DNA of 24,000 nt from Candidatus Caldarchaeum subterraneum (GTDB lineage Archaea > Thermoproteota > Nitrososphaeria_A > Caldarchaeales > Caldarchaeaceae): NCBI GenBank assembly GCA_000270325.1, contig BA000048.1, positions 678,800 through 702,799 of the forward strand, given 5' to 3'. The notes beneath the pieces are model-generated. The model saw only the letters and a program-made list of their open reading frames with translations, made no database searches and was not told where the DNA came from. Position numbers and translations under genes: made by a program. This document shows positions 6,636 through 9,654 of this stretch, one piece after another (positions within the stretch are counted from its first letter, which is position 1; every line of letters begins with the position of its first letter).

Positions 6636-7576
6636 GGCGAAGGATTTTCCTGCTGGGTGCCGCCGCGTTGTCTGCCGGGGCCCTGGTCTACCTCTTCTTG
6701 GGCAACAAGGTCGTGGGCAGTGGTGATGACGTTGTTGGGCGGCGTTGCAGCTACTGCGGCATGGAGATAAGGGATAGGAGGTTTGCCGCGGTGCTTGTTG
6801 TCAACGGTGAGAAACTGTTCTACGACGATGTTGGATGCATGATGATACATTATCTCTCAGTCGAGGGAGTCATCCCACCTGTCAGCAACGCTCCCGTGTT
6901 GGGAAAAGTGGAAAAAATCCATGTCTACGACTTTGGCTCATCAGATGAGGTTGACGGATTTTCTGCATGGTATGTTTTGGGTTCGCGTGTCGAGACGCCT
7001 ATGAGACGTGGTGTAATAGCTTTCAAATCCTTCTCGGATGCTGTGCAGTTTGCGAGAAGCGAAGGCGGTGAAGTTGTTGGATGGGATGGGGCTCTACAGA
7101 CCTTCCTCGGCGGAGACATGCACACGGACATGGAGCATGAGGGTCATGACTACTCGCATGCTTTCCACATTCCGCTCACAACCGTCGACGGAAAAACGGT
7201 GACCGTGTCAGAAATACTCAGGCAGGGCAAACCTGTTCTCCTCGTTTTCTTCGCAACATGGTGCCCCACATGCAGCAAAAACACATCAACCCTCTCAACG
7301 GCGTACAGAAAATTCCGAGGCAAAGCCCTTGTCCTTCTCTCCAGCTTCGACCCACGAGACACCTCCGAAAAAATACAACAATTCCTCAAAATCCATGGGG
7401 CCAGCGAAGAATGGATAGTGACGCAGCCAAACCTCGACTTCCTCGTCGCCCTCCGCGTAATCACTCAGGAGACAATCTTCGCCATCGCACCAAACGGAGA
7501 GATAGTGTATGAGAAGCGGTTCGGAACCTTGACCGAGGACGACTGGCTCAGTATTGTTGAGAAGCTTTCAGCTTGA
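6632..7576 (+). CDS. NosL-like copper chaperone domain fused to a thioredoxin-like (TlpA/ResA-type) domain, twin-arginine-like signal
   Basis: N-terminal MRRRIFLLGAAALSAGA. NosL-type pattern CSYCGMEIRDRRFAAVLVVNGEKLFYDDVGCMM. C-terminal FFATWCPTCSKN (CxxC thioredoxin fold). The TTG start overlaps the upstream stop. Confidence 0.75.
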   Translation: MRRRIFLLGAAALSAGALVYLFLGNKVVGSGDDVVGRRCSYCGMEIRDRRFAAVLVVNGEKLFYDDVGCMMIHYLSVEGVIPPVSNAPVLGKVEKIHVYDFGSSDEVDGFSAWYVLGSRVETPMRRGVIAFKSFSDAVQFARSEGGEVVGWDGALQTFLGGDMHTDMEHEGHDYSHAFHIPLTTVDGKTVTVSEILRQGKPVLLVFFATWCPTCSKNTSTLSTAYRKFRGKALVLLSSFDPRDTSEKIQQFLKIHGASEEWIVTQPNLDFLVALRVITQETIFAIAPNGEIVYEKRFGTLTEDDWLSIVEKLSA

Positions 7577-8039
7577 CGAGGTTTGTTCTGCCACGTCGAG
7601 TGACTTCCACAACTTCTCTGCGGCGGAGCGATGCGACTATGCGATGGGTTTTGATGCGTGAAATTCCAAGAGCCCGTGATATGTCTCTCTGCTCAACAAC
7701 GCCGTTGCTGCGCCTCAGCAAATCAACCACGGCCCTCTCCTCTGATGTAAGCCCCGCAACCACGGGCACGTCTCTGGCCGACAGATAGAGCACAACAGGT
7801 AATGCGATGAGGAGCAGCGCCCCAGCCAACAGCGGCAGATAAACCCACCACATCATACCCAACATAGACATCCCCATCATTTCCCGCATCATCCCACTCA
7901 TCGCAACATCATGCTGCCAAACGCTCACCAGCACAACTGTTAGAAGTAAAACCCCAGACACAGCCGAGAAAACCAGCAAAACACGGTTGAAAACCAACCC
8001 CAACCCAAAAAAAGCCGTTCCATGTTTTAAGTTTTTCAA
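7548..8039 (-). CDS. Membrane-tethered winged-helix transcription regulator with Met-rich extracytoplasmic loop
   Basis: Two TM segments flank HDVAMSGMMREMMGMSMLGMMWW. C-terminal wHTH: RAVVDLLRRSNGVVEQRDISRALGISRIKTHRIVASLRRREVVEV. TTG start at 8039. The 3' end overlaps the convergent NosL-Trx gene by 29 nt. Confidence 0.7.
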   Translation of the reverse strand: MKNLKHGTAFFGLGLVFNRVLLVFSAVSGVLLLTVVLVSVWQHDVAMSGMMREMMGMSMLGMMWWVYLPLLAGALLLIALPVVLYLSARDVPVVAGLTSEERAVVDLLRRSNGVVEQRDISRALGISRIKTHRIVASLRRREVVEVTRRGRTNLVKLKASQQY

Positions 8040-8059
8040 ACTGTTTCACGACTGTTTCA
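8040..8059. promoter_or_regulatory. Tandem direct repeat ACTGTTTCA-CG-ACTGTTTCA in the divergent regulator / PepSY-operon intergenic region (candidate operator)
   Basis: Two exact 9-mers at 8040-8048 and 8051-8059, one helical turn apart, between two divergent starts, followed by the AT-rich AAGATAATCTTA. Confidence 0.3.
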
Positions 8060-8069
8060 AGATAATCTT

Positions 8070-8783
8070 ATGCCTATCCAGGAGATACATTTAGACATGA
8101 GAAGCGTTGTTTTAACGATTGTTTTGCTGTCTTCCGCCACGTTGGCCGCCTTGGTGGCTGCCTACGCGTGGATGCAACAGCCTCCTAACAGCTACATGTA
8201 TGGCGGCGGGATGCATGGTGGAATGATGGGCGGCTGTCCATGCACAGGCTGGTATGGTGGGCAGGCTTCTCCGACGGGTCAAAGAATATCCATGCAGCAG
8301 GCTGAGGAGATATTGGAGAGGTATGTAGCGGGCCTCGGACAGGGCTTCAAGCTGAAGGAGGTGATGGAGTTTCAGCAAAACTTCTACGCCATCGTCGTCG
8401 AGGCGGACACGGGGATAGGAGCCTTCGAGCTCCTCGTAAACCCCTACACAGGCACAGTCCATCCGGAGCCGGGGCCCAACATGATGTGGAACACAAAATA
8501 CGGAATGCATCAGGGCATGATGGGGCGCTACATCCAGCCAACCGCGGACATGCCCATAACCCCTGAGCAGGCCGAGGAGATTGCACTCAACTACCTGCGA
8601 AACCTTTTCCGAGGCGCTGTTGAGGTTGAGGAGCCGACGAGGTTCTACGGCTACTACACCATGGACTACAAACTCGACGGAAACATGCACGGTATGCTGA
8701 GCGTAAACGGTTTCACGGGACAGGTATGGTACCATGGATGGCATGGAGCATTTATTCAAGAAATAGAGTTAGGTGAGGATTAG
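8070..8783 (+). CDS. Secreted/anchored protein with two PepSY-like domains and an N-terminal Met/Gly/His-rich, CPC-containing segment
   Basis: The signal anchor MRSVVLTIVLLSSATLAALVAAYAW suggests the true start may be 8097. Met-rich segment: YMYGGGMHGGMMGGCPCTGWYGG. Two modules fit the PepSY pattern: ISMQQAEEILERYV...VNPYTGTV and ITPEQAEEIALNYL...VNGFTGQV. Confidence 0.65.
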   Translation: MPIQEIHLDMRSVVLTIVLLSSATLAALVAAYAWMQQPPNSYMYGGGMHGGMMGGCPCTGWYGGQASPTGQRISMQQAEEILERYVAGLGQGFKLKEVMEFQQNFYAIVVEADTGIGAFELLVNPYTGTVHPEPGPNMMWNTKYGMHQGMMGRYIQPTADMPITPEQAEEIALNYLRNLFRGAVEVEEPTRFYGYYTMDYKLDGNMHGMLSVNGFTGQVWYHGWHGAFIQEIELGED

Positions 8784-9176
8784 ATGTCGGAGACGTCGAA
8801 ACCCACAGCGGCTTTCGTGCTTTCGCTGGTGGCGGGTGTGCTGATACTGCTCGGAGGGGTGTTTGGCATGGTTGCTTGGATGATGTGGGGAGGAGCGGCG
8901 TACTGGGGTGGTGGATGGGGGATGATGGGCCCCATGATGATGGGATGGTGGATGCCCATGTGGCTGTCAGCCTTCTCAGTCCTCGGACTAGTCTCAGGAA
9001 TAGTCATAGTTGCAAGCGCTTTGATGCTTCAAAACCGTCCATCGGAGGCAAAGACATGGGGCACCCTAATACTGGTCTTCTCTGTGGTCAGCCTCTTCGG
9101 AATGGGCGGGCTCCTCATAGGAGCCCTACTCGGCATAGTCGGCGGAATACTCGCTCTGACGTGGAAGAGTGTCTAA
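8784..9176 (+). CDS. Integral membrane protein with Met/Trp/Gly-rich loop
   Basis: The start follows the upstream stop directly (TAGATG). 3-4 TM segments. Loop MMWGGAAYWGGGWGMMGPMMMGWWMPMW. Same operon as the PepSY and DUF411 genes. Confidence 0.65.
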   Translation: MSETSKPTAAFVLSLVAGVLILLGGVFGMVAWMMWGGAAYWGGGWGMMGPMMMGWWMPMWLSAFSVLGLVSGIVIVASALMLQNRPSEAKTWGTLILVFSVVSLFGMGGLLIGALLGIVGGILALTWKSV

Positions 9177-9177
9177 A

Positions 9178-9654
9178 ATGAGGGGGAAAATCATCGGCTT
9201 AGTGGTTTTCGCGGCGGCCGCGGTGTTGGTGACGATGGCTGTAAACAGCTGGACCGTGAACACATCCACTACCGAGACGACCGTTCAGCTGACAATCTAC
9301 AGGACCGAGCAGTGTCCATGCTGCAAAGAATACGAAGCCTACCTCAGAAACAGTGGGATACCCTTCCGCACCGTGGTTGTTAGCGGCGTCGAGCTGGAGA
9401 ACGTCAGGAAAAAGCTAGGCGTCCCCCGGGAGCTCTACAGCTGCCACACAGCCTCGGCCATGCAATACTTCATAGAGGGCCACACCCCTGCCGAAGCCCT
9501 GAAAAAGCTGCTAGAGGAGAAGCCGCTGCTGAAGGGCATAGCTGTTCCAGGTATGCCTCCGGGTTCGCCGGGAATGGGAGGCGTCAAGACAGAGCCCTTG
9601 AAAATATACGCGTTAAAACCCGATGGCAACATCGTTGTCTGGATGATGTCGTAG
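9178..9654 (+). CDS. DUF411 / CopG-like copper-binding protein with signal anchor
   Basis: CPCC motif, SCHT, EGHTP and GMPPGSPGM are the hallmark DUF411 motifs. I prefer the ATG at 9178 (MRGKIIGLVVFAAAA), 1 nt after the upstream stop, over the listed GTG at 9169. Confidence 0.8.
   Translation: MRGKIIGLVVFAAAAVLVTMAVNSWTVNTSTTETTVQLTIYRTEQCPCCKEYEAYLRNSGIPFRTVVVSGVELENVRKKLGVPRELYSCHTASAMQYFIEGHTPAEALKKLLEEKPLLKGIAVPGMPPGSPGMGGVKTEPLKIYALKPDGNIVVWMMS

Follow-up and report, generated by a model that had tools for sequence, protein, structure and literature searches.

How might an archaeal cell register copper on the outer side of its membrane and convey the signal directly to a promoter? To our knowledge, the only archaeal copper regulators described are soluble TRASH-domain proteins. 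The question is raised by four genes of Candidatus Caldarchaeum subterraneum, an archaeon of hot subsurface habitats, within a 24,000-nucleotide stretch of its genome (contig BA000048.1, positions 678,800 to 702,799; G000:C1:678800-702799), hereafter the window, the genome itself being a single contig of 1,680,938 bp (1.68 Mb). A first-pass annotation, made from the sequence alone, had proposed that a methionine-rich, membrane-tethered regulator stands divergent from an operon encoding a PepSY protein, a small membrane protein and a DUF411 protein, and that this set senses and handles copper outside the cytoplasm. From the follow-up analysis reported here, it is highly probable that the regulator works as a transcription factor tethered to the membrane and controls the neighbouring operon via GTTTCA repeats. 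With considerably less assurance, we lean towards a one-component transmembrane sensor of an extracytoplasmic Cu(I) signal controlling an extracytoplasmic copper-handling operon, copper being the presumed ligand.

Architecture of the regulator and its methionine-rich loop

The four genes were delimited as follows (aa, amino acids).

7548..7997, minus strand: regulator gene, 149 aa from TTG 7997, based on the open reading frame, Pfam and homologue starts
8097..8783, plus strand: tandem-PepSY protein gene, 228 aa; the open reading frame extends over 8070-8783(+)
8784..9176, plus strand: DUF6114 small membrane protein gene, 130 aa
9169..9654, plus strand: DUF411/CopG-like gene, starting at GTG 9169, or at ATG 9178 as in the homologue of the related genome HR01

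The database call starts the regulator at TTG 8003 (151 aa) and its longest open reading frame, 7548-8039(-), encodes 163 aa; homologues begin MVFSR, with an ATG start in HR01, which gives a protein of 149-151 aa. The PepSY start at ATG 8097 is taken from homologues and database gene calls. Because homologues place both true starts later than the longest reading frames do, the divergent region between the regulator and PepSY genes measures about 93-99 nt, and the 30-57 nt and the gene starts given by the first-pass annotation were wrong.

The regulator consists of a first transmembrane helix (TM1), a methionine-rich loop, a second transmembrane helix (TM2), a linker of about 9 residues and a C-terminal DUF7343 winged helix.

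7842..7919, minus strand: coding region of the inter-TM loop, WQHDVAMSGMMREMMGMSMLGMMWW, proposed as the extracytoplasmic Cu(I)-binding tip of a hairpin
7569..7748, minus strand: DUF7343 winged helix-turn-helix (wHTH) domain, Pfam residues 98-157 of the 163-aa reading frame

Hydropathy gives two membrane-length peaks, one on either side of a 23-25-residue Met-rich segment. The AlphaFold model (8-sequence alignment, predicted local distance difference test (pLDDT) 76) has helices at residues 6-46 and 49-94 in the 163-aa numbering, followed by a short linker and the winged helix, and the turn of the hairpin falls on a Ser-Gly pair within the Met tract. The DUF7343 assignment (PF24034) is well above its Pfam cut-off (3.7e-12, 46.4 bits vs 27.6) and database homologues are labelled alike. 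Modelled at pLDDT 83-90, the DNA-binding domain is predicted to adopt a MarR/ArsR-type wHTH fold, a three-helix bundle with a beta-hairpin wing, its Foldseek matches being solved DNA-bound structures of the MarR family, namely MftR, PcaV, ZitR and AbfR (probability 1.0, root-mean-square deviation 1.1-2.5 A over ~70 residues). A sequence search of the PDB with the regulator profile returned matches at chance level only, and no paper in the literature searched mentions DUF7343. Membership of the MarR family proper was rejected, since two TM helices stand in for the N-terminal dimerisation helices and the operator is a direct repeat; the Pfam MarR_2 match is below cut-off (21.3 vs 27).

Arginine residues flank the cytoplasmic ends of both hydrophobic helices, each of which is of full TM length. 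Because the wHTH must be cytoplasmic and the hairpin is two-pass, we infer that the loop lies outside; if both helices span the membrane, the Met/His tip would face the exterior. The two TMs, the Met loop and the winged helix described by the first-pass annotation are borne out by hydropathy and the model, and the loop would lie, as it proposed, on the outer side.

Three adjacent proteins had been singled out as methionine-rich, and all of the quoted strings are present in the sequence: the regulator reading frame (7548-8039(-)) holds MSGMMREMMGMSMLGMMWW between its two hydrophobic segments, the PepSY frame (8070-8783(+)) holds MYGGGMHGGMMGGCPC and the DUF6114 frame (8784-9176(+)) holds GWGMMGPMMMGWWMPMW. 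Met density was scored as the number of methionines in any 20-aa window for the 6460 genomic reading frames that reach 60 aa or more. The regulator reaches the highest value of all (9 Met/20 aa, rank 1), the DUF6114 protein ties second (7 Met/20 aa) and the PepSY protein is within the top 37 (5 Met/20 aa). With three adjacent genes taking first place, second to third place and a place among the top 37 out of 6460, the richness is not due to chance.

The loop is also the most conserved portion of the N-terminal half of the regulator. In 8 homologues of 50-99% identity, residues W41, Q42, H43, M47, M50, M51, M59, M62, M63 and W65 are invariant, so that the motif WQH...M..MM...M..MM.W holds while TM residues vary, and the WQH plus Met pattern is preserved in 24 order-wide homologues. 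Methionine is hydrophobic and common at membrane interfaces, and some family members have loops without it, so the tracts could be regarded as compositional accidents of membrane-proximal segments in a neighbourhood without functional meaning. Against the density ranks, the invariance of individual Met positions and the conservation of module and operator across two Caldarchaeales families described below, we give this explanation almost no weight.

Elsewhere in the genome, two further Met-dense reading frames were noted at G000:C1:1298716-1299897(-) (7 Met/20 aa) and 1632014-1632475(+) (6 Met/20 aa).

The four-gene unit and its operator

The full set of 76 genomes of the order was queried with the four proteins one by one. 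Full-length WQH-type regulators were detected in 23 of them, one from f4 and the others from families f1 and f2 (genus g7). The PepSY-DUF6114 gene pair is divergent from and adjacent to the regulator in 18 genomes; the same gene set carries a 2.4-4.9 kb insert in three others and is co-directional in one. The DUF411 gene directly follows the pair in 19 genomes. The four genes therefore occur together in about 19-22 related genomes, a co-occurrence on which the first-pass annotation had staked its proposal. In HR01, the four-gene module sits in a different neighbourhood, without cuproenzymes. Because that neighbourhood is unrelated, the unit is formed by the four genes and not by the oxidase cluster found upstream of them in the window; the multicopper oxidase (MCO), cupredoxin and NosL genes of this cluster were rejected as part of the conserved module on the grounds that they are not beside it in HR01.

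Sequence identities to the window are mosaic. The three operon proteins of HR01 (L002 = G013:C6) are 90-92% identical and its regulator only 68%, while the same-genus genomes G011 and G012 exhibit the reverse pattern (regulator 88-89%, operon 75-93%), which points to recombination or transfer, with a break close to the operator between the divergent genes.

The intergenic elements are listed below.

8040..8059, plus strand: operator, two exact direct ACTGTTTCA repeats at an 11-bp period (8040-8048 and 8051-8059)
8062..8071, plus strand: TATA-like box ATAATCTTAT of the operon, abutting the operator, ~26-30 nt before ATG 8097
8024..8031, minus strand: TATA-like box CTTAAAAC of the regulator gene, ~25 nt upstream of its start, read from sequence

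The tandem repeat had already been noticed in the first pass; both copies are confirmed, and a degenerate third copy, GTTTTTCA, precedes them just upstream of 8040. At 21 non-identical sites from relatives, the operator recurs ahead of the PepSY operon, its GTTTC invariant and its period 11 bp, and relatives possess 2-4 direct GTTTCA copies, often 3-4. When the regulator is displaced, the operator remains with the operon (G004, G005, G008, G009 and G033); in G044 it is located between the regulator and PepSY genes, and in G008 it is found once more, ahead of a cupredoxin-like gene. Where genomes lack the regulator, the operator was not found before their PepSY genes. It is mainly because the operator co-varies with the regulator family that we assign the one to the other, and from this comparative evidence the tandem repeat as a conserved operator, together with its link to the regulator, is well supported. 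When as many as 2 mismatches are allowed, further hits in the window lie at unrelated positions, never ahead of the other copper genes, and we propose no wider regulon.

In genus g5, the PepSY-DUF6114 pair is preceded by a soluble protein of ~181 aa with a ribbon-helix-helix (RHH)-like N-terminus (L038:1220-1771(-), L039:481-1026(+)), an apparent non-orthologous replacement of the membrane regulator.

A consensus gATA.tctTAt follows the second repeat in the 21 sites, and the box at 8062..8071 would be the promoter element of the operon. On the other strand, a similar TTAAAG box is found 26-33 nt before the regulator ATG of HR01. Because the TATA-like box of the regulator gene is only ~25 nt upstream of the start, its mRNA would be leaderless or nearly so. 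Autoregulation is likely, as the operator lies between the minus-strand TTAAAA box and the plus-strand operon box. As for the direction of control, activation and repression both fit, because the operator abuts or overlaps the BRE/TATA elements.

Operon products, wider relatives and the proposed copper signal

What the operon encodes bears directly on the nature of the signal. Its composition as first annotated is upheld by Pfam matches above cut-off for DUF6114 and DUF411 and by the predicted fold of the PepSY protein. The latter is built of an N-terminal TM, a disordered Met/Gly/His linker with a CPC motif, a first PepSY domain, a Met-rich linker (PNMMWNTKYGMHQGMMG) and a second PepSY domain. 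Its Pfam score (PF03413; 23.6 bits, 6.7e-5) is just below the gathering score of 24, several database homologues bear the PF03413 label, and its AlphaFold model (pLDDT 78) contains two helix plus four-strand units at pLDDT >90, best matched in Foldseek by YpeB (probability 0.99), FoxB and YpmB. According to this model, the PepSY alpha-beta fold is present twice in the 228-aa protein; the fold search returned PepSY proteins only and no metal-binding analogue. The family comprises >6300 homologue clusters extending into bacteria, with EVMEF, PNMMWN and WYHxWHG invariant.

The DUF6114 protein (PF19609; 1.7e-7, 32.3 bits vs a cut-off of 27.9) probably has four TMs according to hydropathy, its TM1 and TM2 being joined by a loop rich in Met, Trp and Gly. 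Across the order, this loop is rich in Met, Trp and Cys in its homologues, which in G023 and G017 are encoded beside cupredoxins; there are also paralogues that lack such a loop.

The operon ends, as first annotated, with a DUF411/CopG-type protein bearing CPCC (reading frame 9169-9654(+); PF04214, 5.6e-22, 77.7 bits vs a cut-off of 27), preceded by an N-terminal membrane anchor or signal. Aligned with the solved CopG (PDB 6WIS/6WJE; phmmer 6.5e-18), its CPCC pairs with CGCC, and SCHT and GMPPGSPGM (GMPxGSPGM), with the conserved His and Met positions of that structure, are also aligned, so that on sequence comparison it is a true homologue of CopG. Proteins of the CopG copper-resistance class are characterised by a tetranuclear copper cluster and a contribution to copper tolerance. 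The N-terminal part of this protein is also glutaredoxin-like (Pfam Glutaredoxin, 1.3e-4), thioredoxin-like genes are often neighbours, and Met and Cys are both sensitive to oxidants. These features would suit an oxidant or redox sensor, in which surface methionines become sulfoxides as in HypT-type regulators and the CPC and CxCC thiols serve extracytoplasmic thiol or Met redox repair. We regard such a sensor as distinctly improbable: the module contains no Msr genes, the residues of the CopG copper cluster have counterparts in the DUF411 protein, the genes that recur alongside encode blue-copper proteins and CopA rather than redox-repair enzymes, and arrays of Met-x-x-Met with His outside the cytoplasm are the classical Cu(I) motif of Ctr1, CusF, PcoC and CopB.

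Relatives of the regulator extend this copper context. Within the order, a sister clade (genus g6; L028, L029, L031, L032, L033) bears CPMC(H), an alternative soft-metal ligand set, in place of the WQH/Met loop and is without PepSY and DUF411 neighbours. In L033, the regulator is beside a thioredoxin-like gene and a Met-rich cupredoxin; the N-terminal linker of that cupredoxin (Met-rich, with WCPCMQW) resembles the GGCPCTGW of the PepSY protein.

A profile search of 1.84 billion representatives recovered ~25 clusters of full-length two-TM wHTH proteins, 150-170 aa long; in many the loop is Met-rich, in others it is of Cys/His type or plain. Neighbourhoods beyond Caldarchaeales were examined for families within a sample of 401 Thermoproteota genomes. 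In two lineages the regulator stands divergently beside PepSY homologues; in five Vulcanisaeta/Caldivirga-type genomes its neighbours are Met-rich cupredoxins bearing a type-1 copper signature, and in one genome (G373:C85) they are a CopA ATPase and a secreted protein rich in Met, His and Trp. A recurrence of copper-type context in independent lineages is thus supported. We consider it possible, though short of probable, that these proteins form a family of minimal, ~150-aa transmembrane one-component metal sensors spread over several Thermoproteota lineages, in which the Met/His- or Cys-lined tip of a two-helix hairpin binds extracytoplasmic Cu(I) directly, a 9-residue linker leads to the wHTH, and several tethered copies assemble at the membrane on helically phased direct repeats.

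The secreted protein of G373:C85 (L093:3482-3964(-)) is divergent from the Met-loop regulator, has a repeated W..M.EHME..W and is rich in Met, His, Glu and Trp, with the CopA ATPase 1 kb downstream; it is possibly a new copper-binding repeat protein. A widespread archaeal form of ~300 aa (P0033, P0034, P0057, P0067 and many further hits of the profile searches) begins with a signal peptide and continues with a ~200-aa ectodomain, for which our Pfam scan gave no match, one TM and a DUF7343 wHTH; judging from this layout, it would follow the same membrane-tethered plan with a larger sensor.

In the mechanism that we favour, the two TM helices would form a hairpin whose outer tip is the conserved Trp-Gln-His plus Met-rich segment, and the ~9-residue linker would couple TM2 to the cytoplasmic MarR/ArsR-type wHTH (DUF7343). 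Several tethered copies would dock head-to-tail, on one face of the DNA, on 2-4 direct GTTTCA repeats 11 bp apart; phased direct repeats would suit multiple membrane-tethered monomers on one face, as with ToxR. Binding of Cu(I) or Ag(I) at the outer Met/His tip would alter hairpin packing and thereby DNA binding, and from its position between two divergent TATA boxes the regulator would control its own gene and the operon. The products of the latter would reside in the membrane or outside the cytoplasm: the tandem-PepSY protein, anchored and equipped with a Met/His/CPC linker, the DUF6114 protein with its Met/Trp loop and the CopG-like DUF411 protein, whose CxCC is a copper-cluster motif, the roles of the first two being presumed.

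The regulator need not be the sensor, however. With the same operon and operator, the PepSY and/or DUF6114 partner could sense the signal, be it copper, another soft metal or general envelope damage, and relay it within the membrane, as in the ToxS-ToxR and LysP-CadC pairs. The PepSY-DUF6114 pair is indeed the most conserved core of the module, occurring with the RHH protein in g5 and with two-component systems in bacteria; the DUF6114 TM helices are without obvious transport residues, and regulation or inhibition is an established role of PepSY domains. We nevertheless judge partner sensing unlikely, in that the Met loop is so conserved, the sister clade exchanges it for another soft-metal motif, CPMC(H), and the Met loop is found in relatives that have neither a PepSY nor a DUF6114 gene beside them.

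Several points weigh against direct copper sensing by the regulator or against its proposed mode of binding. The Met-rich segment is hydrophobic, predicted helical and continuous with the TM helices, and may sit in the membrane interface rather than in solvent. MarR-type domains usually bind palindromes as dimers, whereas binding to direct repeats is deduced here from the footprint of the conserved sequence only. In the 1.68-Mb genome there is a single instance of the pattern GTTTC[AG]N5GTTTCA (8043-8059), where 0.36 would be expected; this uniqueness speaks for the operator but taken alone is not significant. Among four bacterial PepSY contexts, SHOCT proteins and two-component systems prevail, with ArsR and a P1B metal ATPase nearby in one; because these neighbourhoods are not copper-specific, the PepSY protein is not a copper marker. 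About half of the distant relatives examined adjoin housekeeping genes only. The genomes surveyed are related and are not independent samples, so that neighbour counts overstate independence. Finally, the source organism is uncultured.

Neighbouring genes and comparison with known systems

Copper-related genes, identified from Pfam and NCBIfam matches, precede the module in the window.

5188..7576, plus strand: upstream copper context, with a two-domain MCO gene (5188-6201(+)), a cupredoxin gene (6201-6635(+)) and a NosL-thioredoxin fusion gene (6632-7576(+)) whose end is convergent with the regulator

SCO1 and an ABC-2 exporter are encoded farther upstream of the MCO gene. An HTH_10/DmsR-N-like regulator gene (4483-5097(-)) is divergent from the MCO-cupredoxin-NosL operon, which therefore appears to be separately regulated.

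These cuproenzyme and assembly genes (MCO, cupredoxin, NosL-thioredoxin and SCO1) could be taken to mean that the module, instead of detoxifying or sensing copper, supplies it for the biogenesis of a NirK-like oxidase, cupredoxins and a haem-copper oxidase, the regulator turning the operon on at copper scarcity. The second operator before a cupredoxin gene in G008 points the same way, as do the periplasmic nitrite reductase and haem-copper oxidase described in the Caldarchaeum genome paper (PMC3082918). On the other hand, HR01 keeps the four-gene module without cuproenzyme neighbours. CopG homologues, moreover, are known from copper resistance islands (PDB 6WIS). We hold a supply role to be improbable; it differs from extracytoplasmic Cu(I) sensing as favoured here only in the sign of the response, and the two do not exclude each other.

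A canonical copper system is also present in the genome. A TRASH-domain regulator (203-aa open frame) lies beside a P1B ATPase with two HMA domains, that is CopA (874-aa open frame), at G000:C1 ~55.4-59.4 kb (L103, L105-L107), ~620 kb from the window. The first-pass statement that no TRASH regulator is visible thus holds within the window but not genome-wide. Since the TRASH regulator and CopA are already present elsewhere, the idea of the module as a replacement of the canonical cop system was rejected, and the module would be an additional, outward-looking system: an extracytoplasmic counterpart of cytoplasmic TRASH-CopR/CopA, as CusRS complements CueR in E. coli.

CopR/CopT with CopA shares with the regulator studied here an archaeal host, the same genome and copper as the proposed signal. 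CopR, however, is soluble, detects cytoplasmic copper via its Cys-rich TRASH domain and targets an efflux ATPase, whereas the present regulator would sense outside the membrane; with neither a TRASH nor an HMA match in Pfam, it was rejected as a CopR/CopT-type protein. Nor is it ToxR-like: it has no Trans_reg_C match and no ectodomain, its wHTH is C-terminal and it has two TMs. Bacterial ToxR and CadC nonetheless resemble it in that one polypeptide crosses the membrane and binds DNA, direct repeats lie on one face and accessory membrane proteins are encoded alongside. Theirs is an N-terminal OmpR-type wHTH with one TM and a folded periplasmic sensor domain, whereas here a C-terminal MarR/ArsR-like DUF7343 domain is joined to two TMs with a hairpin tip of ~25 residues, in an archaeon with a TBP/TFB promoter.

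Archaeal transcription factors with a membrane anchor have a precedent in ArnR and ArnR1 of Sulfolobus acidocaldarius (cited in PMC13286277). ArnR differs in having an N-terminal HTH, extra cytoplasmic domains and C-terminal TMs; it acts on the archaellum, is itself subject to control by phosphorylation and is without a Met loop or metal context.

In the systems of the periplasm-sensing histidine kinases CusS/CopS, with the periplasmic copper proteins CusF, PcoC and CopG, Cu(I)/Ag(I) is sensed outside via Met/His, as proposed here, and secreted Met-rich copper-handling proteins are induced. These are two-component phosphorelays, whereas here sensing and DNA binding would share one 149-residue protein. 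Two-component systems are scarce in Thermoproteota. Ctr1, a small membrane protein, is comparable in having Met and His clusters (MxxM/MxM) that face away from the cytoplasm, as is proposed here, but it is a trimeric eukaryotic channel with no homology to the regulator, for which transport is not implied; for the DUF6114 protein transport would be speculative.

The system thus combines known kinds, namely membrane-integrated one-component regulation and extracytoplasmic copper sensing, and is built from families of unknown function. The literature searched contained nothing on PepSY with Met-rich segments and copper, on membrane-integrated one-component copper sensors or on Caldiarchaeum copper regulation. 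If the wider family of ~150-aa sensors considered above is real, no extracytoplasmic metal sensor would have been described in archaea before it, and it would count among the smallest transmembrane signalling transcription factors known. If our favoured reading holds, the regulator, with 149 residues, a defined 20-bp operator and a short loop, would offer a very small and tractable model for the control of an archaeal TBP/TFB promoter by an outside ligand. A function would be gained for the membrane forms of DUF7343, for DUF6114 and for the widespread Met-linker tandem-PepSY family, and surface copper handling would be explained in cells respiring with copper enzymes. The hypothesis is directly testable, because cultivable Vulcanisaeta and Caldivirga carry homologues beside Met-rich cupredoxins.

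Two observations concern other potential signalling proteins. In some Caldarchaeum genomes (L036:1043-2440(+), L004:1-547(+)), the regulator gene is directly downstream of one encoding a multi-TM protein fused to a KaiC/RecA-like ATPase, a possible further signalling partner. In the window, the gene directly downstream of the operon (9808-10740(+)) encodes a 310-aa protein that weakly matches winged-helix profiles at its N-terminus (HTH_20, DUF7347) and continues with several hydrophobic stretches; judged by this layout, it would be a second membrane-associated regulator of opposite arrangement, the HTH coming first and the membrane part last.

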